DNA of 64,000 nt from an uncultured Syntrophomonadaceae bacterium (GTDB lineage Bacteria; Bacillota; Dethiobacteria; DTU022), in the NCBI GenBank assembly GCA_964506505.1, contig CAZDKY010000047.1, positions 721 to 64,720 of the forward strand, in the 5' to 3' direction. The translations under genes and the position numbers were made by a program. Positions 4,438 to 46,078 of the stretch are shown here, in pieces (within the stretch, counting starts at the first letter, position 1; each line of letters begins with the position of its first letter). The notes under the pieces were generated by a model that was given only the letters and a program-made list of their open reading frames with translations, was not told the DNA's origin and searched no databases.

Positions 4438-4933
4438 GCCGGGTCCCTCCCTCCCTTTTTCTTCTTTTCTCTCCGCCCCAGGGCAACCTGGTCATGATCA
4501 GGGCATCTTCGTCGCTGTAGTAGTGGAGACGGCGGCCGCAGACGGTGAAGCCGTGTTTTTCGTAAAAGCGGCGGGCGGCCGTGTTGCTGGGGCGCACCTC
4601 CAGGGTATAGCTGCGGGGCTGCTGCGAACTCACTTCTTCGATCAGGGCCTGCAGGAGGCGGGTGGCGATGCCTCGATAGCGGTAATCTTCGGCCACAGCC
4701 AGGGTGGTAATATGCACTTCGTCAATGATAATCCAGCTGCCGATGTAGGCGATTACCCGATCATTGAGGCGGGCCACCAGGTAGTGGGCCAGCCGGTTGG
4801 TCTGCAGTTCGGTGAGAAAAGATTCGGCGGGCCAGGGTTCCCGGAAGGTGATCTGTTCGATGGCGGAGACTTCCCTGATATCCCTGGTATCCATGGGGGA
4901 GATGGTGATGGGCAGGTCCATGTTGTTTTTCAA
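4427..4933 (-). CDS. rimI: ribosomal-protein-alanine N-acetyltransferase RimI (GNAT)
   Basis: GNAT motifs (RYRGIATRLLQ, FYEKHGF) and the conserved position between tsaB and tsaD. The start may instead be the ATG at 4921 (MDLPITIS...). Confidence 0.85.
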   Translation of the reverse strand: MKNNMDLPITISPMDTRDIREVSAIEQITFREPWPAESFLTELQTNRLAHYLVARLNDRVIAYIGSWIIIDEVHITTLAVAEDYRYRGIATRLLQALIEEVSSQQPRSYTLEVRPSNTAARRFYEKHGFTVCGRRLHYYSDEDALIMTRLPWGGEKRRKREGGTRREN

Positions 4934-4957
4934 CTTCTCTCCTTTTCTTGCTTTTTG

Positions 4958-5674
4958 CTACTTTTTCTTACCCTTCTTTTCGGCCAGCCGCTCCGCTTCG
5001 GGACGGCGCAGGTAGATGGGCAGCATTTTCTCGTAAGGCGCATCCGGGTCTTTCTGCAGGATCAGCCGGGCCCGGTAGGCGACCAGGCCGGCCCGGCAGA
5101 TCCGAAAGGGAGCCGGGGCGATCACGGCCCGGCCGGGAAGCGCCTCGCGCAGGACGGGTACGCAGCCGGGCAGTCCCTCCCCGAGAAAAACGACTGCTTC
5201 CTTATAGGAACGCAGGGCATCGGTCAGCTCGGCAAGGGTCACAGCCTGCGGTTCAAGCAGGGTTTGCAGAAGATAAGGCTCTTCGGTGGAACGGCGGTAG
5301 AGGGCACTGTAGACCTGGCTGCGGCGGGCATCGAGGATCGGGCAGATCAGGGTACCCGGGCTGCATACTGCTTCAGCGAGAGCTTCCAGGGTGCAGACGG
5401 GCACGGCCGGTATGCCGAGGCCCTGGGCCAGGGCCCGGGCGGTGGAGACACCGATGCGCAGGCCGGTGAAAGAACCTGGACCGGCGGCGGCGGCTACCGC
5501 TTCCAGCTCTTCGCGCTCCATACCCGCTTCTGTCAGCAGGGCATCGAGCATGGGCATGAGACGCTCGGAGTGAGTTTTCTTAATACTGGTGGTCATCTCC
5601 GCCAGCAGGCGGTCCTCCTGCAGTAGGGCCACACTGCAGGAAAGGGTGGTTGTATCGAGACCTAAGATTAACAG
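4958..5674 (-). CDS. tsaB: tRNA threonylcarbamoyladenosine biosynthesis protein TsaB (YeaZ)
   Basis: The track ORF starts at an internal GTG (MALLQEDR...). The in-frame upstream extension reads (M)LILGLDTTTLSCSV, matching the canonical TsaB N-terminus MxILxIDTS, and begins at CTG 5674..5672 with GGAGGA 8 nt upstream. This is a non-canonical start; gene ends in TAG. Confidence 0.8.
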   Translation of the reverse strand: MLILGLDTTTLSCSVALLQEDRLLAEMTTSIKKTHSERLMPMLDALLTEAGMEREELEAVAAAAGPGSFTGLRIGVSTARALAQGLGIPAVPVCTLEALAEAVCSPGTLICPILDARRSQVYSALYRRSTEEPYLLQTLLEPQAVTLAELTDALRSYKEAVVFLGEGLPGCVPVLREALPGRAVIAPAPFRICRAGLVAYRARLILQKDPDAPYEKMLPIYLRRPEAERLAEKKGKKK

Positions 5675-5690
5675 GGTTTATTCCTCCAGG

Positions 5691-6206
5691 TTAAGTGATG
5701 TTAAGAGATCCGTCGATATGCCAGGTCACTGTTTCGAACAGCCTTTCCACGGCTGCCGCGGCGACGGTTCCGGCAGGGTTAAACCAGAGGTGGCGTCCCT
5801 CCCCACTTTCGTCATAGAATCGCCCGATGATTATCTCCAGCCGATCAGGGGGCAGCATGTCGGGCAGGCGCTCGGGCCATTCGACAAAGGCCACTCCTTC
5901 CCCCGGCAGGTAATCTTCAAAACCTAGTTCAATGATATCTTCATCTTCCGAGAGGCGGTAAAAATCAAAATGGTAGAGGGGCAGGCGGCCGTGGTAGATG
6001 CGTTGCAGGACAAAAGTGGGACTGGTAACCTGTTCCCTGACGGTCAGGCCACGGGCGGCGCCGCGGACGAAGACCGTTTTGCCGGCACCCAGCTCTCCCT
6101 GCAGGGCGACGACCAGCGGTCTATCCAGGATGCGACCCAGGACTTCGCCGATGAAGGCAGTTTCCGCTTCGCTCCTGGTGGTAATATATGCTTCGGCCTG
6201 ACCCAT
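5691..6206 (-). CDS. tsaE: tRNA threonylcarbamoyladenosine biosynthesis ATPase TsaE (YjeE)
   Basis: Walker A LQGELGAGKT and YjeE family length (171 aa); first gene of the tsa operon. Confidence 0.9.
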   Translation of the reverse strand: MGQAEAYITTRSEAETAFIGEVLGRILDRPLVVALQGELGAGKTVFVRGAARGLTVREQVTSPTFVLQRIYHGRLPLYHFDFYRLSEDEDIIELGFEDYLPGEGVAFVEWPERLPDMLPPDRLEIIIGRFYDESGEGRHLWFNPAGTVAAAAVERLFETVTWHIDGSLNIT

Positions 6207-6299
6207 AAATTCCCTCTTTTCTGTGGTTCTTCTTTAATCATAACGGCGATTATTTCGAAAAGCAAATTAGATGCGATGACAAGCCTGTGTTCCGGTTTT

Positions 6300-8255
6300 T
6301 TAGCTCTCCGGGGGGTGAATATCTTCCAGCCGCGCTGTAATCTCTTCCCACCGCTCCATGAGGGCGGAAAGGCTTTCTTTTGTTCCTTCCAGTTCACAGC
6401 CCAGTTCGGCAAGCTGTTTGTGGTCGCCGTAGCTTGCCGGGTCGGATAGAACTCTTTCCAGGCGTCCGATCTCCTCTTCCTTCTCTTCAATTTCTTTTTC
6501 CAGTCGGGCCTGTTCGTCTTTAAGACGGCGGACTCTCTTCTGCTCTTCCCGCCGGCGGCGGTGTTCTTCCTGCCGGCGCCTTTTCTCCCCCTTCTTCGCC
6601 TCTTCCTGATTTTCCTGACCCTTCTCCATCACCGGTTCGTTCTCCTGAACGGTAAGATACTCTTCAAAGGGACCCTCGAAGATACGCAGGGCACCGCCGC
6701 CCATGGCGAAGACTCTGTTAGCCAGTCCTCGCAGGAAATAGCGGTCGTGGGAAACAATAATCAGGGTGCCGGGGTAGTCGGCCAGGGCTTTTTCCAACTC
6801 TTCCATGGCCGGCAGGTCCAGGTGGCTGGTCGGTTCGTCCATCAGAAGGCAGTTGCCACTGCCCAGGGCCAGGCGGGCCAGGGCCAGGCGGCTCTTTTCT
6901 CCGCCGCTCAGGTCGCGGACCTGTTTAAAGACATCGTCGCCGCGGAAGAGATAGCGGCCGAGGTGATTGCGGGCCGCCTTGATATCAAGTTCGGACGCTT
7001 CGGTGATCGTCTCCAGCAGGGTCAGTCGGGGATCGAGGTGCTCCTGTTCCTGGGAAAAGTAGGTCACCCGGGTAGAGGGACCAAGACGGATGCAGCCGGA
7101 CGACGGTTCAATTTCAGCGGCGATCATTTTCAGGAGAGTCGATTTGCCGGCGCCGTTAGGGCCCACCAGGGCGATGCGGTCTCCCCAGCGGATCTCGAAA
7201 GAAAGGTCTTCAAAAAGGGGATCGTTGTTATAGGATTTGCCCACTTTTTCGAAGACAACGGCCAGGCGTCCGCTGCGCCCGCTGTAGTTGAGACCGGCCC
7301 GGAAGCGCCTTTCTTCAGCCGGTCGGCCGACTGCCTCCATTTTGGCCAGGCGCTTTTCGCGGCTGCGGGCCTGTCGCTTGGAGCGCTCATCGGCCTTGGC
7401 CTCGCGCACCAGGCGCTCCTCCCTCTCTTTGAGGAGCAGCTGCTTTTTGTATTCCCGGTCTTTGCTCAGACGCTCCAGCTCCAGCCGGCGGCGGTATTCG
7501 CTGTAGTTGCCACTGTAGCTTTTTACGGTTCCTTTGTCCATGGCAAAGATGTACCCCGCCACCCGGTCGAGGAAAAAGCGGTCGTGGCTGACAACGATCA
7601 AACCGCAGGTCAGGTCGCGGAGATATTTTTCCAGCCACTGCAGGGCCGAGAGATCAAGAAAGTTGGTCGGCTCGTCGAGGAGGAGCAGGTCGAGCTCCCG
7701 GAGGAGAAGGCCGGCCAGGCGGGCGCGGGTCTTCTCTCCCCCGCTGAAGGTGGAAAGGTCACGGCTTAAATCGTCTTCGCTGAAACCGAGACCGCGGGCC
7801 ACGGAGAGAAGACGGTTTTCCACCTGGTAGCCGCCCTCCGTTTCAAAGCGGGCGGTTGCAGTGGCGTATCTTTCCAGCAGTTCGGGTGGAGGGTCTCCCT
7901 GCCCGGCAGAGTGGGCGGCAATTTCCTTTTCCAGGGCGGCGATCTCCTCCTGGAGGCTGAAGATATGGGACAGTGGATGCTCGAGGTGGCGGCGCAGGGT
8001 GCCGTCGGCCAGGCGGCGCGGCTCCTGGGGCAGGTAACCGAGGCGGGTGCCGCGGGCCAGGTGGACCGCTCCGCCGTCGGGTTCCATCTCCCCGGCGATG
8101 ATTTTCAGGAGGGTGGTCTTGCCCGAGCCGTTGGGGCCGATCAGGCCGGCCTTTTCACCGGGCTGCAGCTGGAGAGTAACGGCAGAAAGGATCGTTTCGG
8201 CACCGAATGATTTATTAATCTGGGATAAATTTAGTAAGGACAAGGAATTTCCCAT
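6300..8255 (-). CDS. ABC-F family ATPase (two tandem ABC domains, no transmembrane domain; EttA/Uup/YheS-like)
   Basis: Two P-loops (GPNGSGKTTLL and GPNGAGKSTLL), two LSGGE signatures and a charged coiled-coil C-terminal tail. The track ORF starts at 8381; I place the start at the ATG at 8255 (MGNSLSLLNLSQINKSFG), typical for ABC-F proteins. Confidence 0.9.
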   Translation of the reverse strand: MGNSLSLLNLSQINKSFGAETILSAVTLQLQPGEKAGLIGPNGSGKTTLLKIIAGEMEPDGGAVHLARGTRLGYLPQEPRRLADGTLRRHLEHPLSHIFSLQEEIAALEKEIAAHSAGQGDPPPELLERYATATARFETEGGYQVENRLLSVARGLGFSEDDLSRDLSTFSGGEKTRARLAGLLLRELDLLLLDEPTNFLDLSALQWLEKYLRDLTCGLIVVSHDRFFLDRVAGYIFAMDKGTVKSYSGNYSEYRRRLELERLSKDREYKKQLLLKEREERLVREAKADERSKRQARSREKRLAKMEAVGRPAEERRFRAGLNYSGRSGRLAVVFEKVGKSYNNDPLFEDLSFEIRWGDRIALVGPNGAGKSTLLKMIAAEIEPSSGCIRLGPSTRVTYFSQEQEHLDPRLTLLETITEASELDIKAARNHLGRYLFRGDDVFKQVRDLSGGEKSRLALARLALGSGNCLLMDEPTSHLDLPAMEELEKALADYPGTLIIVSHDRYFLRGLANRVFAMGGGALRIFEGPFEEYLTVQENEPVMEKGQENQEEAKKGEKRRRQEEHRRRREEQKRVRRLKDEQARLEKEIEEKEEEIGRLERVLSDPASYGDHKQLAELGCELEGTKESLSALMERWEEITARLEDIHPPES

Positions 8256-16160: not shown

Positions 16161-17282
16161 TTAGAGCAGATCCTCCACCATTCTGGCGATGCTCAGGCAG
16201 GAGGTCAGACCGGGCGATTCAATACCAATCAGGTTGATCAGGCCCGGCAGGCCGCGGCTGCTTTCTTCGGCGATCACAAAATCACGGAAAGGCTGGCCGG
16301 GCCCGGAAAGTTTACCCCTGATTCCGGCCATATCAGGTTCCAGGTCGTTCAGCTCGACAAAGGGCAGGAACGATTTGACGGCATCATAGAACTCAACAGC
16401 CCGGGCCGGATCAACCAGGTAGTCGATTTCATCAACGTAGACAGTGTTGGGTCCAAGGATTAGGCGCCCGTCAAGCATCTTGGTTACATGGATGCCAAGG
16501 CCGGTCAGCTCATGAAGGGGCGGCGGGTAAATCAGGCGCTCTACCAGGGAAGCCTTGGCCGGGGGCAGGCTGAAATATTCGCCCTTGCAGAAGTACTGGC
16601 GGTAACCGGCTTCAATGATATCGATACCGGCGGCTGCCGCCAGACTGCCAGCCTGCAGCCCGGCGCAGTTAACCACGTTTAGACATTCGAGTGTGTCCGG
16701 GCTGCCGTCCGGATTCTTATAGTTAACCCGGTAACCATCGGTGCATCGTTCGATACCCGTAACGCAGTGGCAGTAAGCAGGCATAACCCCATTCTGCAGG
16801 GCATCTTCCTCCAGGCGGGCCATTAAAGTGTGGCTGTCGATTATGCCGGTGGAGGGCGAAAAAAGGGCGCAGTCTGCTTTGATATGCGGTTCCAGACGGG
16901 TCACCATTTTACGGTCCATCATTTCCAGGTTTTCGACCCCGTTGGCGGAAGCCTGCTCAAGAAGGCTGTCAAGTGAAGCGCATTCTTCGTCTGTATTGGC
17001 GACGATTAGTTTGCCGCGTTGGTTGTAAGGAACATTTCGATCATCACAGTAGGCATAGAGCAGCTCCCGTCCCTCCAAGCAAAGACGGGCTTTGAGGGTA
17101 CCTGAAGGATAGTAGATGCCGGCGTGGATTACCTCGCTGTTGCGGCTCGATGTTTCTCGGCCAAAGTGTTCGCGCTTCTCCATGAGAACTAAAGTCCGGG
17201 CATTTTGTTGGGCGGAAAGCCTGGCGGCGACAGCCAGGCCGACTACTCCGGCCCCGATAATTACGGTGTCAACTTTATCCAT
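16161..17282 (-). CDS. FAD-dependent oxidoreductase of the L-2-hydroxyglutarate oxidase (LhgO)/glycerol-3-phosphate dehydrogenase family
   Basis: N-terminus DTVIIGAGVVGLAVAARL...SSRNSEVIHAGIYY is closely similar to the LhgO/YgaF family; 373 aa. Confidence 0.8.
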   Translation of the reverse strand: MDKVDTVIIGAGVVGLAVAARLSAQQNARTLVLMEKREHFGRETSSRNSEVIHAGIYYPSGTLKARLCLEGRELLYAYCDDRNVPYNQRGKLIVANTDEECASLDSLLEQASANGVENLEMMDRKMVTRLEPHIKADCALFSPSTGIIDSHTLMARLEEDALQNGVMPAYCHCVTGIERCTDGYRVNYKNPDGSPDTLECLNVVNCAGLQAGSLAAAAGIDIIEAGYRQYFCKGEYFSLPPAKASLVERLIYPPPLHELTGLGIHVTKMLDGRLILGPNTVYVDEIDYLVDPARAVEFYDAVKSFLPFVELNDLEPDMAGIRGKLSGPGQPFRDFVIAEESSRGLPGLINLIGIESPGLTSCLSIARMVEDLL

Positions 17283-17438: not shown

Positions 17439-20400
17439 TTAGCGGCAGGATAGGATGGCTTCACGCAGACGTGCTATTTTTTCTTTAGATCCTGCATCAT
17501 CAGGAGCCGCTGCAGCCAGGTAAAACTTAACCTTTGGTTCGGTGCCCGATGGGCGTACTGCAAACCAGGTGCTGTCGGCCAGGGTATAGTGAAGAACCGG
17601 AGAGCGCGGCAGGGTAAGAGCAAATTCTTCCCCTGTCTGCAGGTTCCAGCCTTTTCCTTGTGCATAATCCCTTTTGAAAACCAGCTGCTGCCCGGCAAAT
17701 TGGGGCGGCAGATCTTTGAAGACGTTTACGTGCCGATCGGCCTGGGAGATATCCTCCAGTTCCACGGTGAGAAGTTCGTCACGGTGGTAACCGTGGCGGC
17801 GGTGCAGCTCGTCAAGCAGATCGAAGAGGGTCTGACCCTGCTCCTTGTAATAGGCAACCATCTCGGCGATGAGCATAGAGGCGATAACCGCGTCCTTGTC
17901 GCGAACAAAGGTGCCGGTGAGATAACCGTATGATTCCTCGTATCCAAAGACGAAACTGCCAGTTCCCTTCTCTTCAAACTCCTTCATTTTATCCCCAATG
18001 AATTTGAAACCGGTCAGGGTTTCAACAACGCGCAGACCATAGTGGGCCGCTACTTTGCGGCCAAGATGCCCGGTAACGATAGTTGTCACAAGGACAGGAT
18101 CAGGCGGCATGGCTTTTCTGTCGGTAAGGCGGCTGCAGATATATTCCAGGAGCAGGGCACCCACCTGGTTGCCGTTAAGCATCCGGAGGCAGTCAGCAGC
18201 ATCGCGGGCGGCGACACCGACACGGTCACAGTCGGGGTCGGTAGCCAGCACCAGTTCAGCACCTTCCTGTTCCGCAAGGTCCAGGGCCATTTTTAGGGCA
18301 GCGGGATCTTCGGGGTTGGGGACGCTGACGGTGCTGAATTCACTGTCAGGAACCATCTGCTCTTTCACCGGGATATAGTCAACATGGGGAGCGCGGTTGA
18401 GCAAGTCCGGGATGTACACCGAACCGGTGCCATGCAGGGGAGTAAAAACTGTTTTGACCACTGCCCGCGGTTTGCTCATGGAAAGGGCAGACACTTTTTC
18501 TATATAGTGCCGGTCGAGATCCGGATCAACTTCCTGCAGTAACCCACGGCTGACTGCTTCACCACGGGAAAGCTGTTTGACGTCAGCAAAGATATCCACT
18601 TTCTTGATGGCGGCGATTACTTCGTCCACCAGAGGGCTGACTGCCTGGCCGCCGTCGGGACCATAGACCTTGTAGCCGTTGTACTGCCGCGGGTTGTGGC
18701 TGGCAGTGATCACGATGCCGGCAGCGCAGCCCAGCTCACGGGTGGCGAAGGAAAGGGCCGGAGTTGGCCTGATATCGCTGAACAGGAAGGCCCGGATACC
18801 GTTGGCAGCGAGAACCAGGGCCGCCGTTTCGGCGTAAAAAGGTGAATAACGGCGTGTGTCGCAGGCAATGGCCACGGCTGGTAGATCTTCAATGGCAAGA
18901 TCGGCGGCGGAAGCGCCGTCATCTGATTGCGACCGGACCCTGCGGTTTATATAGTCGGCCAGGCCCTGGGTAGCGCGGCCGATGACATAGCGGTTGATCC
19001 GGTTCAGGCCGGGGCCAATGATCCCACGCATGCCGCCAGTGCCAAAAACAAGTTCACTGCCGAAATGGCGCTCGATGGACTCGGGATCTTCCTGCATGGC
19101 CTGTAGTTCTTTTTTCATTTCCGGATCAAGGCCGGGCTGACCGAGCCAGCTGCGGAAGTGTCGCCGGGCCGGTGATTCTTCTTGTGACTGCGAGTTGGCA
19201 TGTGCCGGTGCGGATGAATCAATTCGTCCGTAATCGTCCTCGTAACGCTCAATATCGTCTTCCCCCAGGTAATCGCCGGTCTGCACTTCGATGAGGGCCA
19301 TCTCCTCTTCGCCACGGTTTTCAAGGCGGTGGCGCGCCTCGACAGGTATAAAGGCTCTTTCTCCCACTTTTAATGTAAACTGGCGATCGTCTATGGTGAC
19401 CAGTGCTTCGCCGCGGATAACCACCCAGTTCTCGGCCCGCCGGTGGTGGCTCTGCAGGCTGAGGCGTGAACCGGGGCTTACGTTGATCCTTTTAACCTGG
19501 TATCCGGGTCCGGTTTCCAGGGAGGTATAGCTACCCCAGGGTCGGTAGACGGTGCGGTGTTCGCGGGCTTCTACAGCACTGCTTTCTTTGAGGCGATCGA
19601 CAATTTTCTTCACATCCTGGCTGCAACTGCGGTCGCAGACCAGGAGAGCATCGTGAGTATCGACGATTACCAGATCCTTCAGGCCGATGGCTCCTGTAAG
19701 ACGGGACGGGGAAATAATCAGGCTATTTTCGGTATCCACGGATATTACCTGCCCTCGGAAGGCGTTCCCGCGGTTGTCTCGTCCGGAAAGCTGGTAGTAG
19801 GCTTCCCAGCTGCCAAGGTCACTCCAGGTAATATCCGCAGGGATAACGGTTACCTCGTCGGAACGCTCAAGGATCCCGTAATCTATGGATATTTTTTGCA
19901 GGTTGTGATAGGCTTCGTCCAGCATCTCTTTCCTGCTGTAATCGATCCGGACCAGGGTGTCGTAGATCTGAGGTAATAGTTTTCTGTACTGTTCCATAAG
20001 GGTGTCAACCCGGAAGATAAACATACCGCTGTTCCATAGAAAACGGGGATCTTTCAGGTAGGCAATGGCTTTTTCCAGATCCGGTTTTTCAACAAATTTT
20101 TCAACGCGGAAGGTTTTGTGATCAAGTTTTTCACCGCAGCAGATATAGCCGTAGCCGGTTTCCGGGTAGGTGGGACGAATGCCAAAAGTAACCAGGCCGT
20201 AGTTTTCGGCAGCCCGGGCACCGTCTTCCAGGAGAACAGCAAACTGGTCCCGGTCTGGAATGAGGTGATCGGAGGGTAACACTGCCATCACTGCATCGGG
20301 CTCCGCTTCTTTCTGCAGAAAGCGGGCGGCCAGACCGATAGCCGGGGCTGTGTTACGGGCTTCCGGTTCCTCGAGCAGGCGGATTTTTGTCAGGCCAGCC

Positions 20401-20702
20401 AGCTTCAGGCGGCGCTTGATTTCGCCCGCCTGGTCGCGGTGGGTGACTATGAGTATATTTTCTTCCGCCACCACGGTGAGGACACGGCTGATCGTTTCAC
20501 CAAGAAGAGTCACTTCACTAACCGGGTCTGAGGGAGAAGATTCTCCTTCCTCCGGATGGTTTTGAGTTCTGTTATTCTTTATCATACTTTGATCTGAAAC
20601 CGGCAGTGGAAGAAACTGCTTGGGATAAAGTTCACGGCTCAGCGGCCAGAGCCTGGTACCGCTTCCGCCGGCCAGGATTACAGTGTACAGCATAGAAATC
20701 AC
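17439..20702 (-). CDS. fusion protein: mannose-1-phosphate guanylyltransferase (ManC) + cupin mannose-6-phosphate isomerase domain + phosphomannomutase/phosphoglucomutase (1087 aa)
   Basis: N-terminus VILAGGSGTRLWPLS (nucleotidyltransferase). Middle cupin domain (VKRINVSPGSRLSLQSHHRRAENWVVIRGEALV). C-terminal half with the phospho-sugar mutase active-site loop GIVITASHNP and a PgcA/ManB-like fold. One uninterrupted ORF. Confidence 0.85.
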   Translation of the reverse strand: MISMLYTVILAGGSGTRLWPLSRELYPKQFLPLPVSDQSMIKNNRTQNHPEEGESSPSDPVSEVTLLGETISRVLTVVAEENILIVTHRDQAGEIKRRLKLAGLTKIRLLEEPEARNTAPAIGLAARFLQKEAEPDAVMAVLPSDHLIPDRDQFAVLLEDGARAAENYGLVTFGIRPTYPETGYGYICCGEKLDHKTFRVEKFVEKPDLEKAIAYLKDPRFLWNSGMFIFRVDTLMEQYRKLLPQIYDTLVRIDYSRKEMLDEAYHNLQKISIDYGILERSDEVTVIPADITWSDLGSWEAYYQLSGRDNRGNAFRGQVISVDTENSLIISPSRLTGAIGLKDLVIVDTHDALLVCDRSCSQDVKKIVDRLKESSAVEAREHRTVYRPWGSYTSLETGPGYQVKRINVSPGSRLSLQSHHRRAENWVVIRGEALVTIDDRQFTLKVGERAFIPVEARHRLENRGEEEMALIEVQTGDYLGEDDIERYEDDYGRIDSSAPAHANSQSQEESPARRHFRSWLGQPGLDPEMKKELQAMQEDPESIERHFGSELVFGTGGMRGIIGPGLNRINRYVIGRATQGLADYINRRVRSQSDDGASAADLAIEDLPAVAIACDTRRYSPFYAETAALVLAANGIRAFLFSDIRPTPALSFATRELGCAAGIVITASHNPRQYNGYKVYGPDGGQAVSPLVDEVIAAIKKVDIFADVKQLSRGEAVSRGLLQEVDPDLDRHYIEKVSALSMSKPRAVVKTVFTPLHGTGSVYIPDLLNRAPHVDYIPVKEQMVPDSEFSTVSVPNPEDPAALKMALDLAEQEGAELVLATDPDCDRVGVAARDAADCLRMLNGNQVGALLLEYICSRLTDRKAMPPDPVLVTTIVTGHLGRKVAAHYGLRVVETLTGFKFIGDKMKEFEEKGTGSFVFGYEESYGYLTGTFVRDKDAVIASMLIAEMVAYYKEQGQTLFDLLDELHRRHGYHRDELLTVELEDISQADRHVNVFKDLPPQFAGQQLVFKRDYAQGKGWNLQTGEEFALTLPRSPVLHYTLADSTWFAVRPSGTEPKVKFYLAAAAPDDAGSKEKIARLREAILSCR

Positions 20703-20968
20703 TCCACTTCACACACTATATTTTCTACCTTATTTTATAACTGCTCAGGCATGGACTGCTGTGTCAGGAGGGCTGAAAGAGCCGTCCTTCTGTGTGCCAG
20801 AGGAATGAATGGACGGTTCCCCCCTCTCTCCCGGCGCGCTTTCTGCCCGTTAAAGATATTTCTACTGATTTGTTTGCTCCAGGCTACCCCGGGGTTGAGG
20901 GCAGGTGAAAAAGGCTTAATAACACTATTCACATGATAAAAGTGTGTCAATTCCTCCGCCCCCCTGTG

Positions 20969-23278
20969 TTACAGGTTAATTTGCTGCTGCTGCTGGGAAA
21001 GGCCCTGGTGAGCCACCAGGTGCATGCGCTGCAGGGCCAGCAACAACGAAACTACTGATTCGCCGCCCTGGTTCCGGTTGATGCCGCCGGGATGGAGGCC
21101 GTCGTAGCAGGCCCCGGTGGAAAAATTATAGAGAGGCTGACGAACGTCGTTGCTGCCGAAGAACCAGTTGAAGGCCCATTCCATGTGCCGAAGCCAGTTG
21201 CTGTCGCCGGTGAGCACGTAGGCCTGGTAACAGGCATCGATGAGGGCAGCAGCGTCGACCGGCTGCTGGTCAAAGCGAGCCTTGTTTCCACCCCTCTTGT
21301 ACCACCCGTCATTGCCGATCAGGGAAAGATGGCCATTCTCTTCGCTGGTGTTGACATTGATCAGCCAATGCAGGCTCTGCAGACCAGTTTCAAACATTTT
21401 TTCTTCGTCCAGCATGCCGCCGGCCACCAGAAGGGCCTGTGAGATACGGGCGTTGTCATAAGCAAGAATGTCTTCGCACCAGTGCCAATCGTCGTCGGCA
21501 TTTTTTTGATGAAGATGGTAAATTTTTTCGGCCAGTTCTTTCATGATCTGGCGGACGCGGGCATCACCACCAAAGCGGCGCAGGTAGTAGTTGGCACCGA
21601 TCACAGCAAAAGCCCAGGCTCGCGGCGAAGTAAAGCGAAGCGGGGTATCGATCAGGTCTTTGAAAAGCCTGGTGGCCAGGCCGAGAATATCGTCACCCGG
21701 CGGATGGGCAATGGTATAACCGAGAGCCCAGAGGGTGCGTCCATGGCTGTCCTGGGAGCCACTTTCTTCGAGCCATCGGCGGTCGAAACTCATGAAATTG
21801 CGCATTCGCTTGCGATTTTCATTGTAAGCGTGGTGCAGAAAACTGATATATTTTTTCAGCATCCTGATCACCGGTTCGTCCTTGAAAAGACGCCAGTTCA
21901 TCACAGCAACGATCAGGGCGCGGGCGTTGTCGTCTGTGCAATAGCCATGGGTCCGATCGGGAACAGCGTAAATGGCGTGCTGGAATAGACCGGTGTCGTC
22001 AGTCATGTCGCGCAGGTGTCCCAGGTTCGGTTCTGGCAGGACTGCCCGTTCGGTAACATCGGCACTTTGCAGGGAAGGCACAAACATTTTACTGTAGCTG
22101 AAACGAGCTTGCTCGAAGGCAGTGGCATAGCTGCGAGCAACCTCTTTCCACACCATCTGCCTTCCCTGCTGGTAGGCTTTCTTACGCATGCGGTTACGGC
22201 GGCCTTCGTTACTGAGCAAGTCGATAATTTCATCGGCCATCGCCCCGCTGTCCTTGAAGGGAACGAGACTGCCGCATCCATCGGCTAACAGTTCCTCAGC
22301 GTAGATATAGGGGGAGGAGACAATCGCTTTGCCGCAGGCCAGGGCATAAGCCAGTGTGCCTGAGGTAATCTGCTCGCGATTCAAATAGGGTGTGATATAA
22401 ACATCGGTGGCCACAAGGAACTGGACCAGGCGCTCCAGGGAAACATACTGGTTATAAAAGGCAACGTTTTCTTCAAGACCCATGTCACGGACCATCTTCT
22501 GCAGGCGAAGACGATATTCTTCGCCGTAACGGCGTTTTACCTCGGGGTGGGTGGCACCGAGAATAATATAGAGGGCATCGGGATGCACCTGAACCACTTT
22601 TTCCATCGCCTCAACGGCATACTCCAGGCCCTTGCTCGGACTGAGCAGACCAAAGGTTAGCAGGAGCTTACGCCCCTCGGCCTGGAACTGGTCCTTATAA
22701 TAGGAAGAGTCCAGAAAGGGAACATCGGGTGCCCCGTGGGGAATAAGCAGGATCTTATCGTCAGGCACACGGTAAACCCGCCGGAGAATATCCAGGGCAG
22801 CCTGGGCCATGACCACTACAGAGACGGATTGCTCGCAAACGCGCATCAGCGTTTGCCGCTGGCCTGGAGTAGGATCCTCGAGAACAGTATGCAGGGTGGT
22901 TATGGTCGGTTTTCTAAGGCCGGACAGCAGATAGGTAATGTAGCTTCCATCTTCACCGCCAAATATGCCGTACTCATGCTGGATGGAGACTGCATCTACT
23001 GGAGAGTGGTTGATAAAGTCGGCCGCCCGCTGGTAGTCGGCACGATGCTGGTCGCGAATATGAAAGGTCACTGTGCGGTCGTAATTGAAATTATCGTTGA
23101 TGCTGTTGAGAGCTATTACCTCAAAATTTTTCTGCTCGCTGCTGTCGGCATTTTCGCCGTAGAGCTCTTTCATGCTGTTGAGCAAGTCCCCACAGAAGGT
23201 GGCAATACCGCACTGGCGCGGTGGATAGGTTGAAATAAAAGAGAGCTTGACCGGACGGAGAATTTTACCTGGATGCAT
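20969..23278 (-). CDS. GT4 glycosyltransferase fused to a C-terminal ~370-aa glycosidase-like (six-hairpin / amylo-alpha-1,6-glucosidase-like) domain
   Basis: N-terminal 400 aa is a Glycos_transf_1/GT4 fold (STYPPRQCGIATF ... EGFGL-like region). The C-terminus (DDTGLF...HGYCTDDNARAL...WHWCEDILAYDNARI) looks like an (alpha/alpha)6 glycoside hydrolase; its family is uncertain. Start set at the ATG at 23278 (MHPGKIL; AAGAGG 8 nt upstream). Confidence 0.75.
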   Translation of the reverse strand: MHPGKILRPVKLSFISTYPPRQCGIATFCGDLLNSMKELYGENADSSEQKNFEVIALNSINDNFNYDRTVTFHIRDQHRADYQRAADFINHSPVDAVSIQHEYGIFGGEDGSYITYLLSGLRKPTITTLHTVLEDPTPGQRQTLMRVCEQSVSVVVMAQAALDILRRVYRVPDDKILLIPHGAPDVPFLDSSYYKDQFQAEGRKLLLTFGLLSPSKGLEYAVEAMEKVVQVHPDALYIILGATHPEVKRRYGEEYRLRLQKMVRDMGLEENVAFYNQYVSLERLVQFLVATDVYITPYLNREQITSGTLAYALACGKAIVSSPYIYAEELLADGCGSLVPFKDSGAMADEIIDLLSNEGRRNRMRKKAYQQGRQMVWKEVARSYATAFEQARFSYSKMFVPSLQSADVTERAVLPEPNLGHLRDMTDDTGLFQHAIYAVPDRTHGYCTDDNARALIVAVMNWRLFKDEPVIRMLKKYISFLHHAYNENRKRMRNFMSFDRRWLEESGSQDSHGRTLWALGYTIAHPPGDDILGLATRLFKDLIDTPLRFTSPRAWAFAVIGANYYLRRFGGDARVRQIMKELAEKIYHLHQKNADDDWHWCEDILAYDNARISQALLVAGGMLDEEKMFETGLQSLHWLINVNTSEENGHLSLIGNDGWYKRGGNKARFDQQPVDAAALIDACYQAYVLTGDSNWLRHMEWAFNWFFGSNDVRQPLYNFSTGACYDGLHPGGINRNQGGESVVSLLLALQRMHLVAHQGLSQQQQQINL

Positions 23279-23562
23279 AAAAAACACCTCTTTTTTCAGA
23301 AGTCGGTTATCAGAATACCGTAAGGCCGGGATTTAAAATACCGGCAACTCGGAACAGAATAACTTTTTCTAGAAACTGTTGATCCGGGAAATTTGATCAG
23401 CTTAACATATAGATCGTTTAAATAAGTATAATTCCACTTAAGCATTATTCAAGAGGTTTTCAGAAGTTTTTAAGGTTTATCGCCTGGTGTGCTCAATCTT
23501 TCTGCATAATCGGCTAAAGTCTTCCCAGGTTATATAAATGGTGTAGCAGGCAGGGGTTCTTC

Positions 23563-24693
23563 TCAGGCCCGGCTGTGCAATATTTTTTTATATACTTCGA
23601 TATAGCGATCCACCATCAGGTCGGTGGTAAAGTTTTCTTCCACGTGGCGGCGGCAGTCACGGCGATCGATGCGGTCAAAGCGAGCCAGGGCTACACCGGC
23701 TTCGTCAAGGCTGTCAACCAGGAAGCCGGTCTGGCCATCTTTGATCAGCTCGGGCATAGAGCCCCTGTTAAAAGCAATTACCGGGGTGCCGCAGGCCATT
23801 GCTTCTACTACGCTCAGTCCGAAGGGTTCATCAAAATTTATCAGGTGCAGGAGGGCACCGGCGCGCCCGAGGACCTCTCCTTTTTCAGCCGGTCCTACGG
23901 GGCCGATGTAGTAAACCTGCTCACCATCCAGGTAAGGCTTGACATAGCGGTCGAAGTAGTTCTGATCCTGGATAATGCCGGCAATGACCAAAGGCAGTCC
24001 GGCCTGCTTGGCCAGGCGAATTGATTCATAAGCGCCCTTGTCATGGTGAATACGGCCAAAAAAGAGCAGATAGCCTGGCGCCGGGATCTGCGAGTATTTT
24101 TCCCGGGGGACCTCCGGCGGCCTGAATTCCGGTCTTTTTTCATACTGCTCTTTTTTACGTTTTGGCAGATTAACTTCTGCCGGGTTGCCCTGCGGATCGG
24201 CAAAGAAGGGATATTCTTCAACCGGTATACCGTGATGGACGGTAGCTGCATAATCAAGAGCAGGGTGGCGATCTGCTTCACTGATGGCCACGTAATGGAC
24301 ACGGCCGTTGTAGCGCCGGAAGACCGGAAGGATCCGCGGCGAAGAAAAGCCGTGGATAGTTGTTAAAACCGGGGTATCCACAAGCCCTGAATAGCTGAGG
24401 GGCAGGAAATCGAAATTATTATGAATCAGGTCATAGCAAGAAGCCTCCTCGAAGACGGAGGCAATGTGCAGGCATTCCCACACTTTTGGGTCGAGTTCCG
24501 GGTCTTCCGACCAGGGACGCGGCGCTACCGCCTTCAGGTAGCCGGCGGTAATGGAATCGGCAGTGGCATAGAGTGTAACTTCTATTCCACGCCGGATTAA
24601 ACCTTCGGTAAGCACACTGACAACCCACTCCCAGGGTCCATAATGCCGGGGTGGGGTGCGCCAGGATATGGGTGACAGCATGGCAATTTTCAT
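23563..24693 (-). CDS. GT4-family glycosyltransferase
   Basis: GT-B fold with the C-terminal EPFGLSVVEAMACGTPVIA motif typical of retaining GT4 enzymes; 376 aa. Confidence 0.85.
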   Translation of the reverse strand: MKIAMLSPISWRTPPRHYGPWEWVVSVLTEGLIRRGIEVTLYATADSITAGYLKAVAPRPWSEDPELDPKVWECLHIASVFEEASCYDLIHNNFDFLPLSYSGLVDTPVLTTIHGFSSPRILPVFRRYNGRVHYVAISEADRHPALDYAATVHHGIPVEEYPFFADPQGNPAEVNLPKRKKEQYEKRPEFRPPEVPREKYSQIPAPGYLLFFGRIHHDKGAYESIRLAKQAGLPLVIAGIIQDQNYFDRYVKPYLDGEQVYYIGPVGPAEKGEVLGRAGALLHLINFDEPFGLSVVEAMACGTPVIAFNRGSMPELIKDGQTGFLVDSLDEAGVALARFDRIDRRDCRRHVEENFTTDLMVDRYIEVYKKILHSRA

Positions 24694-26125: not shown

Positions 26126-26812
26126 TTAGAAGAAATAGCGCTTGATCTGCTCGAAGTTGCGGCGCACGTTCTCTTCCTGCGTAACAATGCCCATGTGGCC
26201 GGGAAGAAGCAGTTCTATGTCTTCCAGTTTGGAAAGCTTTTCAATACTTTGGCCCAACGCGGCCATATCGCCGCCGGGCAGGTCAGATCGGCCGATGCTG
26301 CCATCAAAAACGGTGTCGCCGCTAATGAGGGCTTTTTCATTGAGCAGGTGAAAACAGACACAGCCCGGAGAATGACCGGGGGTATGGTAAACTTCGATAC
26401 GGTCACTGCCACCTTCTACACCGAGATCCAACGTCCCTTCTTCAAGGTAGAAATCCGGTTTGAGATTGAGCTCATCTCCCGTGTTGGAAAGGTGGCGTTT
26501 GGCTATGGCTTCAACGATAAATTCGTCATCTTTGTGCATACCCACGGTAACACCGCTTTCGGCACGGAGCACACTTACGGCTTCCACATGATCTGGATGG
26601 CCATGGGTGCACAGGATCAAGTCAATATCGGTAACGTCAAAACCATCCTGGTTTAGGCTATCAACAAGGGACTCCAGGCAAGCTTCGTTGAACTCATTGA
26701 CGATGTATCCGGGATCAAACAAAATGGTCTTTTCCCCTTTGAACAGGTAGCTGTTGCAATTGTTGGCATTCCCCCGCCAGGGGTAAAAGTAAAGTTTATC
26801 CGTCAGTTTCAT
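26126..26812 (-). CDS. MBL-fold metallo-hydrolase
   Basis: HxHxDH motif (CTHGHPDHVEA) and a downstream HTPGHSPG; start set at the ATG at 26812 (MKLTDKLYF). Confidence 0.8.
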   Translation of the reverse strand: MKLTDKLYFYPWRGNANNCNSYLFKGEKTILFDPGYIVNEFNEACLESLVDSLNQDGFDVTDIDLILCTHGHPDHVEAVSVLRAESGVTVGMHKDDEFIVEAIAKRHLSNTGDELNLKPDFYLEEGTLDLGVEGGSDRIEVYHTPGHSPGCVCFHLLNEKALISGDTVFDGSIGRSDLPGGDMAALGQSIEKLSKLEDIELLLPGHMGIVTQEENVRRNFEQIKRYFF

Positions 26813-26884
26813 CGTAAGTTTCCTCCTTTTTCTGAAGGATTTCAAACAATTCATATCATACCACAGGAAAAGCCGGTTGCCAAA

Positions 26885-26917
26885 GAATGAAGCGCGAAAA
26901 TTATCCGCGCTTCATTC
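26885..26917. terminator. perfect 12-bp-stem hairpin downstream of moaD
   Basis: GAATGAAGCGCG-aaaattatc-CGCGCTTCATTC with weak flanking U-tracts; a likely terminator or RNA-stability element for the aor-moaD transcript. Confidence 0.45.
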
Positions 26918-26959
26918 CTGTTAAAAACTTTTAAACGGCAGCCAAACCCGTCTTCATCC

Positions 26960-27199
26960 CTATCCGCCGGCGATGGCAGGAAAAAAAGCTACCACTTCTC
27001 CTTCAGAAAGGCGATAATCAAAAGAACGTTTTTTATATCCGATGAAAACATGTTTAACCGCTCCTGCTTCTATCCCCAGATGATTCACCAGATCACCAAC
27101 GGCGGATCCTGCGGACAAATTCACGTTAACAGGCTGATTGCCTGTCCCTTCCGGATTGTACCCGGCCAGGGTGGCATATAAACGAACTGTTACTTTCAT
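26960..27199 (-). CDS. moaD: MoaD/ThiS-family sulfur-carrier protein (ends in GG)
   Basis: 79-aa ubiquitin-like beta-grasp protein ending ...AIAGG*, directly downstream of aor as is usual in tungsten-AOR loci; ends in TAG. Confidence 0.8.
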   Translation of the reverse strand: MKVTVRLYATLAGYNPEGTGNQPVNVNLSAGSAVGDLVNHLGIEAGAVKHVFIGYKKRSFDYRLSEGEVVAFFPAIAGG

Positions 27200-27202
27200 C
27201 AG

Positions 27203-28945
27203 CTATTTTTCCCAGAATGCGTCGAGTTCTTCATCGGTAACATCCCAGACCACGTTATGCGGCGGTAGTTTTTCATAGGTCATAAATTCCGGCATGCGAT
27301 CTGCCTCTTTACCAATACCCGCCTGGAGGTTGAAATCATGTTCCAGACGCAGGATCTCATCACCAATTCTGGTCACATCGTCAGCGGTGTAGTTGGTACC
27401 CACCATGGCATTTACAGTCTGGACCATGCCATCAAAACCACTGCTGATATCAAGAATGGGGAAAGCAATGAAGAGACAGTAACCGGCAGCATCAATAAAT
27501 GCGGTTGTTTGCTGGAAGGCTTTCGAAAGGCCGACCTTGTCTTTTTTGGAAAGAGGGTCCGCCTTGCCACCGACGGCAAGAATTTCAGGTGCAATTGTGT
27601 ATCCGGCAGTGTGATCGGCGCCCATGGTCGAAGTGGCATAGGTCACACCGATTCCTTTGACCGCCCGCGGTTCGTAAGCCGGCATACTCTGCCGCTTAAT
27701 GGTGGGGATGCGGGTAACCCCATAAGCTTCGCCGGTGAACTGGGTGCCCTGGCCGAGAATATGGCCGAGCGAGGAACCTTTGCCAATTTCCTTCAGCAGT
27801 TCAATGGCTTTCGGCCCGTCTCCGAATTCGGCCAGGCCTGCTTCCATGGCCACACCGAGCATTCCCCCGGCTTCAATAGTATCAAGGCCCATGTCATTGC
27901 AAAGCCGCACCAGCTCGGCGACATGATCAAGATTGTCGATACCGCAATTGGCCCCCAGGGACCAGAGAGATTCGTATTCAACGCAGGAGACATGCTCGCT
28001 GCCATCTTCCCTGGCATAAACGTTGGAGCAGTGTATGATGCAACCAGGGTGGCAGCTGTGCCCCATCATCCCGGCTCCGCCTCTTTTTTCAGCCGCTTCG
28101 GCCAGCGCTTCACCACTGATTTTTGCCGCTCCCTCGAATACCCCTGACCGGAAATTTCTGGTCGGCAGTCCGCCGGCTTCGTTAAGAATGTTAACCAGGA
28201 CGGCTGTACCAAAGCTATTCAGGGCTCCGCCCTTCTTGGTAACATCATGCTTCATAATCGCTTCAGCCAGTTTCTTCTGTCCTTCCTTGAAGGCTTCCGG
28301 ATCTTTGGGTTTAACACCCGGGGCACCGCTGTCATCAAGCACTATCGCCTTCAATTTCTTGGAGCCCATCACTGCCCCAAGGCCGCCACGTGCGGCATAA
28401 CGGGAAGACCGTCCTTCCGGATCGTTGAAAGCAATGCCGGCCATGGCCATTTTCGCTTCGCCGGCCGGACCAATCAGGCAAAATGATGTTTTCTCACCGA
28501 ATTTGTCCCAGATCATTCCGGCACATTCATAAGTCCCCTTGCCGCACAGATCATCGGCCGGGACCAGCTCCCCGCCATCAACAGTTAGTTTAAGCATCAG
28601 GCACTGCTCTTCTTCCGGAAGACCTTCCACCACCAGGGCGCTGTAACCCATACGGGCCATCTTCTGGACAAAAGATGTGCCGGCGTTAGATTCTTTGATG
28701 CCGCCTGTAAGTGGCGATTTTCCGCCAACGGAGATGCGCCCCGAGTTAGGGGCATAGGTCCCGCTGACAATACCCGGGGCAAAAACCAGCTTGTTGTTTG
28801 GCCCCAGAGGATGGCATAGCGCCGGTACTTCATCGCTGATCAACAGTGATGTCAACCAGCGCCCTCCCTTCCCGGCGTATTTCTCAGGCAGCGGCTCAAC
28901 ATTAATTTCTTTCTTTGTCATATTAACGCGAACAAGTTTACCCAT
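27203..28945 (-). CDS. aor: aldehyde:ferredoxin oxidoreductase (tungsten-containing AOR family)
   Basis: N-terminus MGKLVRVNMTKKEINVEPLPEKYAGKGGRWL with all three AOR domains; about 580 aa. Start set at the ATG at 28945. Ends in TAG, and the frame runs directly into moaD (EK-TAG-L-MKVT). Confidence 0.9.
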   Translation of the reverse strand: MGKLVRVNMTKKEINVEPLPEKYAGKGGRWLTSLLISDEVPALCHPLGPNNKLVFAPGIVSGTYAPNSGRISVGGKSPLTGGIKESNAGTSFVQKMARMGYSALVVEGLPEEEQCLMLKLTVDGGELVPADDLCGKGTYECAGMIWDKFGEKTSFCLIGPAGEAKMAMAGIAFNDPEGRSSRYAARGGLGAVMGSKKLKAIVLDDSGAPGVKPKDPEAFKEGQKKLAEAIMKHDVTKKGGALNSFGTAVLVNILNEAGGLPTRNFRSGVFEGAAKISGEALAEAAEKRGGAGMMGHSCHPGCIIHCSNVYAREDGSEHVSCVEYESLWSLGANCGIDNLDHVAELVRLCNDMGLDTIEAGGMLGVAMEAGLAEFGDGPKAIELLKEIGKGSSLGHILGQGTQFTGEAYGVTRIPTIKRQSMPAYEPRAVKGIGVTYATSTMGADHTAGYTIAPEILAVGGKADPLSKKDKVGLSKAFQQTTAFIDAAGYCLFIAFPILDISSGFDGMVQTVNAMVGTNYTADDVTRIGDEILRLEHDFNLQAGIGKEADRMPEFMTYEKLPPHNVVWDVTDEELDAFWEK

Positions 28946-29175
28946 CCGGAATCCTCCTTCATTTTTCAAATATTTTAATGATAAAAGGAAATAAAGATAA
29001 ACCACAGTAACGCAACACTTCAAAAAAAGTATAACATAAATATGAATTATCGGTCAATTACTTTTATTTATTAGTATATATTCTATATTCTGAACGTATA
29101 GCTGAAATTGGTTGAATTTGGCTGGCCCGGCCTTGATTAGAAATGTTAGGCCGGTAGCTGGCGAAAGAGGGGTTT

Positions 29176-45859: not shown

Positions 45860-46078
45860 CGCAAAAACCCTCCTTTGCCTGTTATTTAGTGGGTAGCTCT
45901 CTTCGCAGAGGAGCCCTGGTAAAAGGATCATGGCTCCGGCCGGGAAAGAGTACCGGCAGGCCTTTCTTCAGGTCCATCCGCAATTCTTTAACTGTTGTTC
46001 TTCAGCGAGCAATTCTTAATCCCACTGTTTCAGTATAATTGATGGCCGGCAAAAAAACAATTGCCCATTTAGTTAATC

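Follow-up and report, generated by a model that had tools for sequence, protein, structure and literature searches.

The subject of this analysis is a minus-strand gene within a 64,000-nucleotide stretch of DNA from an uncultured Syntrophomonadaceae bacterium (the whole stretch is referred to as the window). In one uninterrupted frame the gene encodes a ManC-type protein, comprising a GDP-mannose pyrophosphorylase (GMP) and a cupin phosphomannose isomerase (PMI), which is continuous with a complete alpha-D-phosphohexomutase. Taken as a whole, it is probably best explained as a three-module fusion for GDP-mannose synthesis which arose from a coupled operon pair and supplies the GT4 glycosyltransferases encoded upstream. 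Its features are given below; residue numbering throughout follows the 1087-aa frame beginning at the GTG at 20702, and pLDDT is the predicted local distance difference test score of AlphaFold.

17439..20693, minus strand: ManC(GMP+PMI)-mutase fusion, complete coding sequence for 1084 aa, start ATG at 20693, stop at 17439-17441; database copy P0001 is 100% identical
20702..20705, minus strand: ribosome-binding site GGAG, 8 nt 5' of the ATG, the sole conserved part of the upstream intergenic region
19785..20693, minus strand: GMP nucleotidyltransferase domain, aa 4-306 (PF00483, TIGR01479), motifs invariant in 25 sequences
20514..20603, minus strand: low-complexity insert after the PKQ motif, aa 34-63, pLDDT <50 at aa 36-61
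19590..19754, minus strand: ManC left-handed beta-helix domain, aa 317-371 (PF22640, E 3.2e-16)
19224..19571, minus strand: type II PMI cupin domain, aa 378-493 (PF01050, E 1.9e-41; Cupin_2)
19158..19223, minus strand: inter-enzyme linker, aa 494-515, IDSSAPAHANSQSQEESPARRH, low complexity, pLDDT <50 at aa 493-508, in frame in three assemblies
17442..19157, minus strand: PgcA-type alpha-D-phosphohexomutase, aa 516-1087 (PGM_PMM_I-III), with invariant motifs and folded domains
18876..18944, minus strand: mutase domain I loop, aa 587-609, the third low-complexity expansion, ratio of nonsynonymous to synonymous substitution rates (dN/dS) 0.35-0.72
18699..18701, minus strand: codon of the presumed catalytic phosphoserine, Ser668, in a TASHN motif invariant in 25 family members

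The original prediction described a single 1087-aa open reading frame, and this was confirmed as one continuous minus-strand frame at 17439..20702 with no internal stops; only its start was corrected. Translation almost certainly begins at the ATG at 20693, giving 1084 aa, since the GGAG lies 8 nt upstream, this ribosome-binding site is kept in five loci, P0001 has the same length, and the N-termini of homologues all begin M(L/Y)(Y/A)V. The GTG at 20702 falls within the ribosome-binding site, a stretch (GGAGTGAT) which is shared by the window and loci L090, L091 and L081, the version in L005 being GGGGTGAT.

The proteins of L090 (GCA_018400435.1) and L091 (SRR24907504) are 92% and 86% identical to that of the window, and apart from substitutions the only differences in the DNA of the three genes are indels of 9, 12 and 30 nt. 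As all of these indels are multiples of 3, the frame is held across the junction. A fourth assembly, LQBG01000058.1 (L092, 'Firmicutes bacterium ML8_F2'), carries an intact 1089-codon frame at 4516-7782 and over 9.4 kb matches the window at 99.67% identity, gap-free within the gene; this metagenome-assembled genome (MAG) and the window are of the same species. A 594-aa database protein (OPL11828.1, P0122, 'hypothetical protein'), which begins inside the linker and matches window residues 494-1087 at 593 of 594 positions, was considered as proof of a real split and rejected because its own contig, LQBG01000058.1, carries the intact frame; it is a truncated gene call. In the annotation of that contig the protein starts at a non-canonical codon, and the ManC half is uncalled. 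A hidden stop or frameshift between the halves, the doubt raised with the original prediction, is excluded by four independent assemblies and a family of more than 100 clusters. Plus-strand open reading frames overlapping the gene (up to 139 aa) were taken as chance, given the strong purifying selection on the opposite-strand gene.

The family search covered 5.8 billion proteins, clustered at 90% identity, with NCBI, JGI, ENA and Logan assemblies. The same full-length architecture was found in about 107 clusters of 1030-1140 aa, 48-92% identical to the query, and all seven core domains (NTP_transferase, beta-helix, PMI, cupin and PGM I-III) were present in each of the 25 members sampled. A single entry (P0056) stands for all cupin-containing members in an exhaustive library of representatives at 50% identity, and the fusion is therefore a narrow lineage. 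Source records had been labelled by their submitters as Syntrophomonadaceae, Bacillota/Firmicutes or Dethiobacteria MAGs, with no cultured isolate among the records of a limited sample. In the taxonomic survey of genome contigs the matches listed were mostly stand-alone mutases, so that the distribution of the fusion is under-sampled there.

Judged by its sequence, the N-terminal 493 aa would be a bona fide type II PMI-GMP and a full-length member of that family. Beside NTP_transferase (PF00483, E 2.5e-43), the ManC beta-helix, MannoseP_isomer and Cupin_2 were matched in Pfam. The TIGR01479 GMP_PMI equivalog scored 506.3 bits against a cutoff of 372.95, with profile positions 31-467 of 467 matched by aa 62-493 in addition to an N-terminal stretch, whereas the enterobacterial GMP-only model NF012004 remained below its cutoff (418 against 859). 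The GMP domain carries GGSGTRLWPLSR..PKQ (aa 12-29) and FVEKP (aa 203-207), and thus the signature GXGXR(L)WPLS...PKQ (GGSGTRLWPLSRELYPKQ, aa 12-29, core residues invariant in 25 members) and the F(V)EKP motif as these are cited in PMC5982138. The T. maritima GMP structure 2x5s matched the domain with E 5.5e-67. Motif conservation was read from an alignment of 25 sequences of 50-93% identity, in which GG.G.RLWP.SR..PK, EKP (aa 205-207) and SID (aa 272-274) were invariant or nearly so in the GMP module, as were RPWG, RLSLQ.H..R.E.W, H458/R459/N462 and EVQ.G.YLGEDDI.R..DD..R in the PMI module. The window cupin contains YRPWG, the candidate metal ligands Q417, H419, E424 and H458, and the C-terminal end YLGEDDIERYEDDYGR. 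Positions Q417, H419, E424, H458 and N462, which we take to be metal ligands from general knowledge of cupins and PMIs, were invariant in the alignment, leaving the ligand positions intact.

The mutase half is likewise complete. PGM_PMM_I, II and III were matched with E values of 1e-33 to 1e-21, and PGM_PMM_IV fell just short of its cutoff (22.7 bits against 23.1). This last domain was matched at E<=1e-5 in 15 of the 25 family members and the region has high pLDDT in the window protein, which indicates a four-domain architecture. The catalytic, metal, sugar and phosphate loops of the alpha-D-phosphohexomutase superfamily are all present: after the native N-terminal helix (F..WL) come TASHNP (666-671, within GIVITASHNP at aa 662-671), DPDCDR (822-827), GYEESYG (920-926) and RPSGTEPK (1050-1057). 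GTGG.R, TASHN, TDPD.DR, GYEES.G and RPSGTEPK are invariant or near-invariant in the 25 sequences, and Ser668 is taken to be the catalytic phosphoserine from what is established for the superfamily.

This half had been called a phosphomannomutase in the original prediction. A complete alpha-D-phosphohexomutase is indeed fused to ManC, but the more specific assignment did not hold, as scores were far below cutoff both for ManB/CpsG (NF011943, 41.4 bits against 801) and for the AlgC-type phosphomannomutase/phosphoglucomutase (NF007088, 67.2 against 618). Its sequence instead resembles the PgcA-like 'phospho-sugar mutases' with a GEES sugar loop, the PgcA-type or PGM2-like class which we take to comprise Firmicutes proteins of about 570-580 aa; fragments of the mutase family are labelled 'phospho-sugar mutase' by PGAP. 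Hundreds of stand-alone proteins, 560-600 aa long and 40-59% identical, align with the C-terminal 572 aa from end to end, the N-terminal Y..W helix included. All four catalytic loops are common to the stand-alone PgcA-type mutases and the fused one, although the latter lacks a separate start codon and forms one chain with ManC. That it uses mannose phosphates is suggested by its fusion and operon partners.

Selection was measured by the Nei-Gojobori method among the three close genes of the window, L090 and L091. Values of dN/dS were 0.11-0.16 for the GMP core, 0.025-0.076 for the PMI cupin (the lowest in the protein) and 0.083-0.095 for the mutase; together with the invariant motifs, these low values indicate that all three catalytic modules are maintained. 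The N-terminal insert gave 0.64-0.95 and the linker 0.20-0.31, the latter from 22 codons only.

The two low-complexity strings named in the original prediction were present, DSSAPAHANSQSQEESPARR at aa 495-514 in the linker and QSMIKNNRTQNHPEEGESSPSDPVSE at aa 38-63 in the N-terminal domain; the expansion in mutase domain I was absent from its list. All three segments are rich in S, P, E, D, N and Q, hypervariable, and unalignable between sub-lineages. Within the family the K28-to-L66 segment spans 9-93 aa (11 aa in most compact members, 37 aa in the window), the R493-to-W519 segment 12-74 aa (25 aa in the window) and the Y584-to-I612 segment 12-33 aa (27 aa in the window). The shortest members have next to nothing between EDDYGR and the mutase. 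AlphaFold predicts both the N-terminal insert and the linker to be disordered. The linker, insert and mutase loop are tolerated, lineage-specific, near-neutral expansions and not functional hallmarks of the fusion, since many family members are without them. The original prediction had proposed that fusion channels substrate from fructose 6-phosphate to GDP-mannose; a linker which is disordered, unconserved and variable in length favours tethering and fixed stoichiometry over a defined tunnel.

The expectation that manC and mutase genes would be adjacent but separate elsewhere was borne out in other Firmicutes, where split pairs have the same gene order and are translationally coupled. In Bombilactobacillus apium (L006) the two genes share a frame, with one codon between the TAG of manC and the ATG of the mutase; the manC TGA overlaps the mutase GTG start in L061, and L026 shows an overlap of 29 nt between the two genes. 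To arise from such a pair, the fusion needs no more than the loss of a stop codon or a slight frameshift, and it retains ManC complete through EDDYGR and the mutase complete from its native N-terminal helix (F/Y..W). Locus L044 was also considered as a split manC-mutase pair and was rejected, its upstream gene having a GalU-like tail.

The PgcA-type mutase is a recurrent fusion partner. In the same clade it has become joined, independently, to ManC in reversed order (P0146), to a GMP without cupin (P0112, P0144), to GH130 (P0286), to UDPGP (P0188), to a GH13 alpha-amylase-family domain (P0232) and to RmlD (P0278). The fusions P0146, P0112, P0144 and P0286 support mannose 1-phosphate as a mutase substrate, and also the view that such joining has been selected for repeatedly. 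A neighbour-joining tree built from the mutase halves, without support values, groups the main family in a single clade within which the cupin-less forms are nested; the other fusions lie elsewhere.

Taken together, these observations suggest the following scheme. A translationally coupled manC-mutase operon pair would have lost the stop codon or frame boundary between its genes, giving a single polypeptide of about 120 kDa with three intact catalytic modules. In this polypeptide the type II PMI cupin would interconvert fructose 6-phosphate and mannose 6-phosphate, the PgcA-type phosphohexomutase would interconvert mannose 6-phosphate and mannose 1-phosphate, and the GMP module would form GDP-mannose from mannose 1-phosphate and GTP. 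It would serve mainly to provide GDP-mannose for the two GT4 glycosyltransferases encoded upstream, and mannose 1-phosphate made or consumed by a neighbouring GH130 enzyme would join the same protein at the branch point. Fusion would ensure 1:1 expression and proximity of the three activities, with a flexible, length-variable linker acting as a tether and not as a structured channel, and the linker, N-terminal insert and mutase-domain-I loop would be neutral disordered expansions typical of a soda-lake sub-lineage. We infer the three enzymatic activities from family membership and motif conservation; the mannose specificity of the mutase, the direction in which flux would run and a possible kinetic advantage of being fused are likewise inferred.

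The partner genes on which the scheme draws lie upstream of the fusion on the same strand.

20969..23287, minus strand: GT4-(alpha/alpha)6 glycosyltransferase, 772 aa, directly upstream of the fusion, GT4 in its N-terminal half
23563..24693, minus strand: second GT4 glycosyltransferase, 376 aa, also found in L081, L083, L090, L091 and L092
24724..25698, minus strand: GH130 beta-mannoside phosphorylase, 324 aa (PF04041, E 1.5e-55), also found in L081, L090, L091 and L092

The N-terminal half of the 772-aa protein has its closest match in PimA (E 6e-11), which depends on GDP-mannose. Full-length orthologues with 40-75% identity lie directly upstream of the fusion in L081, L005, L001, L083 and L089, and a corresponding gene precedes it in L090, L091 and L092 and is absent in L087 and L088; the gene is thus directly upstream in 8 of the 10 cupin-containing contexts, which are those of nine relatives and the window. 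The cupin-less variant stands by itself. The best solved relative of the GH130 protein is TM1225 (E 3e-58). GH130 enzymes interconvert beta-mannosides and alpha-mannose 1-phosphate (PMC4264767, PMC12814180), and some use GDP-mannose weakly, which the TM1225-type subfamily did not (PMC12814180). Alpha-mannose 1-phosphate is also the intermediate common to the mutase and GMP modules. The locus had been predicted to depend on GDP-mannose, and this agrees with the two GT4 genes and the gene for a mannose 1-phosphate-forming phosphorylase, an arrangement which is kept in relatives.

In the 275-nt spacer upstream of the fusion (20694-20968) no regulatory RNA or attenuator was matched in Rfam; only the ribosome-binding site was conserved, and the folding z-score was -0.96. 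Promoter and terminator scans gave counts near the shuffled expectation, with nothing convincing between the 772-aa glycosyltransferase gene and the fusion, an outcome which is consistent with, though no proof of, co-transcription of the two genes.

Several other features of this neighbourhood were observed. The C-terminal ~378 aa of the 772-aa protein (20969-22105, minus strand) belong to no Pfam family, and AlphaFold models them as an (alpha/alpha)6 barrel (pLDDT 88, predicted template modelling score, pTM, 0.88). This domain has more than 3,400 homologues, mostly fused to GT4, in many phyla (Planctomycetes, Spirochaetes, Desulfobacteraceae, Bipolaricaulota and others). Among known structures it is closest to that of YPO2471, an uncharacterised Yersinia protein (7tem, TM 0.73), and next to those of cellobiose-2-epimerase/AGE-family enzymes and GH76 alpha-mannanases. 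About 50 nt at ~23375-23425, 5' of the 772-aa gene, are extra relative to the otherwise 99.7%-identical ML8_F2 contig and adjoin promoter-like hexamers at 23425-23473 found by consensus scan. Downstream of the fusion by 156 nt lies a DAO-family FAD oxidoreductase (16161-17282, minus strand), similar both to type 2 glycerol-3-phosphate oxidase and to L-2-hydroxyglutarate oxidase, for which it scored 255 bits where the cutoff is 299; a gene of this type follows the fusion in L081, L082 and L092, probably in L005 (a 382-aa open reading frame), and one gene further on in L087. Upstream of the GH130/GT4/fusion cluster, at 26126-29023 on the minus strand, are genes for an aldehyde:ferredoxin oxidoreductase and a metallo-beta-lactamase-fold protein. 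Their order is kept in L081 and L090 with a small ThiS-like gene between them, and L091 has an oxidoreductase fragment and the lactamase-fold gene only; this probably reflects conserved synteny and not shared function.

A number of observations weigh against a dedicated three-step route to GDP-mannose. The mutase is below the cutoffs of every curated phosphoglucomutase, phosphomannomutase and GlmM equivalog, its sugar loop, GEES, is the one typical of glucose-active mutases, and members of its clade are fused with, or lie next to, UDP-glucose pyrophosphorylases and a GH13 alpha-amylase-family domain; the mutase may be a generalist hexose-phosphate mutase. The GT4 link is not universal, as P0068, P0104 and the cupin-less P0112 are without GT4 neighbours. 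The AlphaFold model of the fusion (mean pLDDT 82, domains 80-95) has a pTM of 0.54, at which inter-domain geometry and active-site proximity are unreliable. Finally, to our knowledge the cupin-bearing ManC of enterobacteria such as E. coli and Salmonella has been reported without PMI activity, and intact PMI motifs therefore do not prove that activity.

Three other explanations of the locus were weighed, each of which we consider unlikely to a similar degree. If the protein were mainly catabolic, GH130 phosphorolysis of imported or stored beta-mannosides would yield mannose 1-phosphate, which would pass to fructose 6-phosphate for glycolysis, with GDP-mannose as a side branch. A GH130 gene does stand in the cluster of the closest relatives, the succession of GH130, phosphomannomutase and PMI is an established catabolic pathway, salvage of mannose 1-phosphate to GDP-mannose has been proposed for a similar Thermoanaerobacter cluster (PMC4264767), a GH130-mutase fusion exists (P0286), and both isomerase reactions are reversible. 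However, the most consistent partner is the GT4-(alpha/alpha)6 gene and not GH130, which is absent in L083, L087 and L088. Moreover, no mannoside transporter or secreted mannanase adjoins the cluster in the window, and the N-terminal GMP module, for which catabolism has no use, is strongly constrained.

In an equally tentative extension of the GDP-mannose supply reading, the fusion would be the hub of a conserved but undescribed cytoplasmic mannoside cycle in soda-lake and syntrophic Firmicutes, in which the GT4 and GT4-(alpha/alpha)6 enzymes build a mannoside from GDP-mannose and GH130 degrades it to mannose 1-phosphate. The product in such a cycle might be a soluble mannoside or an oligomannan that acts as a store or as a compatible solute, and the mannose 1-phosphate would re-enter the fusion. 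By analogy, it could then be regarded as a bacterial counterpart of the Leishmania mannogen cycle with the sugar-phosphate chemistry in one polypeptide.

A further reading, which we find no less doubtful, accepts the fusion as real but bifunctional (GMP and mutase), with a structural or regulatory cupin and mannose 6-phosphate coming from a separate ManA or from mannose uptake. The cupin-less sub-family of ~921 aa nests within the fusion clade, and the cupin is evidently dispensable in some lineages. In the cupin-containing proteins it is this module which is under the strongest purifying selection, its Q/H/E/H ligand positions, YRPWG and C-terminal YLGEDDI.R..DD..R are all invariant, and the GMP_PMI equivalog was passed where the GMP-only model failed.

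It is considerably less likely that the mutase serves the interconversion of glucose 6-phosphate and glucose 1-phosphate and was fused to ManC for co-regulation only, with no continuous pathway. Besides the GEES loop, the nearest NCBIfam and PDB matches, which include phosphoglucomutases, point in this direction, as do the UDPGP and GH13 fusions of the clade (P0188, P0232) and its position next to a GalU-like gene in L044. Against this, fusion to ManC arose at least twice and in both domain orders, a fusion to the GH130 mannoside phosphorylase occurs as well, and manC-to-mutase translational coupling is widespread. Phosphohexomutases of this superfamily often accept both glucose and mannose phosphates, as the sugar loop contacts O3 and O4 and not C2.

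That the single frame is an assembly or sequencing artefact joining two genes through a lost stop or frameshift has a negligible chance of being true and was rejected: the separately annotated 594-aa protein and the separate manC and mutase genes of other Firmicutes would fit it, but the former is a gene-calling artefact on DNA holding an intact frame, the one-frame architecture recurs in four independent assemblies and ~107 clusters down to 48% identity, every indel is a multiple of 3, and the shortest family members are still fused despite having almost no linker.

Elsewhere in the window, a 487-codon frame at 44471-45931 (minus strand) contains a single in-frame TAG (…GKADGL*IGVGDP…) and overlaps a match at 44713-44812 to Rfam PYLIS_2, the mtbB pyrrolysine insertion sequence (47.2 bits against a gathering threshold of 36, E 3.6e-8). 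Together, the TAG and the PYLIS_2 match suggest a pyrrolysine-containing dimethylamine methyltransferase, and hence a pyrrolysine-decoding Firmicute.

With respect to its significance, the fusion is a tidy case of operon neighbours fusing, conserved in a narrow group of uncultured anaerobic Firmicutes, and is no new kind of biology. As a natural 'Rosetta stone' it ties a poorly annotated clade of PgcA-type mutases to mannose-phosphate metabolism, and it illustrates translational coupling turning into covalent fusion. If all three activities are true, it would provide a single-gene route from fructose 6-phosphate to GDP-mannose, of relevance to the engineering of GDP-mannose, GDP-fucose and 2'-fucosyllactose, for which ManB and ManC are now co-expressed or artificially co-localised. 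It also exposes an annotation problem, as full-length relatives are named only ManC by PGAP and only phosphoglucomutase by JGI, and in one GenBank record the C-terminal half is a 'hypothetical protein'. The conserved partners, a GT4 fused to a widespread unnamed (alpha/alpha)6 domain and a GH130, point to an uncharacterised mannoside pathway, and the product of the GT4, GT4-(alpha/alpha)6 and GH130 enzymes is a more interesting question than the fusion itself.

In comparison with type II PMI-GMP enzymes (AlgA, XanB and ManC-type), the fusion has the same order of nucleotidyltransferase, beta-helix and cupin and the same GXGXRLWPLS/PKQ, FVEKP and cupin motifs. Those enzymes stop after EDDYGR at ~470-480 aa, whereas the fusion continues into a complete mutase of ~570 aa; unlike them, it also has ~26 disordered residues inserted behind the PKQ loop. 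In its gene set the locus is similar to Teth514_1785-1789 of Thermoanaerobacter sp. X-514, which comprises GH130 enzyme(s), a mannose-1-phosphate guanylyltransferase, a GT4 mannosyltransferase and a hypothetical protein, and in which mannose 1-phosphate from phosphorolysis was proposed to feed GDP-mannose synthesis (Chiku et al. 2014, PMC4264767). In Thermoanaerobacter, however, the guanylyltransferase is a separate protein and the mutase is encoded elsewhere in the genome, whereas in the window they are fused. The Thermoanaerobacter cluster further includes an ABC transporter and a GH5 enzyme, both of which are lacking in the window cluster, and the window GH130 is closest to TM1225-type enzymes and not to Teth514_1788/1789.

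In the literature no description was found of a natural ManC(PMI-GMP)-mutase fusion of PMI-containing, PgcA-type composition, the sole precedent being a domain-level remark on Streptomyces coelicolor SCO1388. The KEGG entry K16881, which we take to be defined as 'mannose-1-phosphate guanylyltransferase / phosphomannomutase', presumably covers the SCO1388 class of protein; the identifier appears in papers on nucleotide-sugar genes. SCO1388 is a single polypeptide for which GMP and phosphomannomutase functions were predicted from domains (Howlett et al., PMC5982138), and a GMP-phosphomannomutase fusion is therefore a kind of protein already on record. The window protein conforms to this kind in having an N-terminal sugar-1-phosphate guanylyltransferase and a C-terminal phosphohexomutase in one polypeptide. 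The two, compared by description only, are likely independent in origin. The account of SCO1388 is at the level of domains and leaves a PMI module unmentioned (PMC5982138), and to it the window fusion adds the PMI cupin, a PgcA-type mutase and a Firmicutes host.

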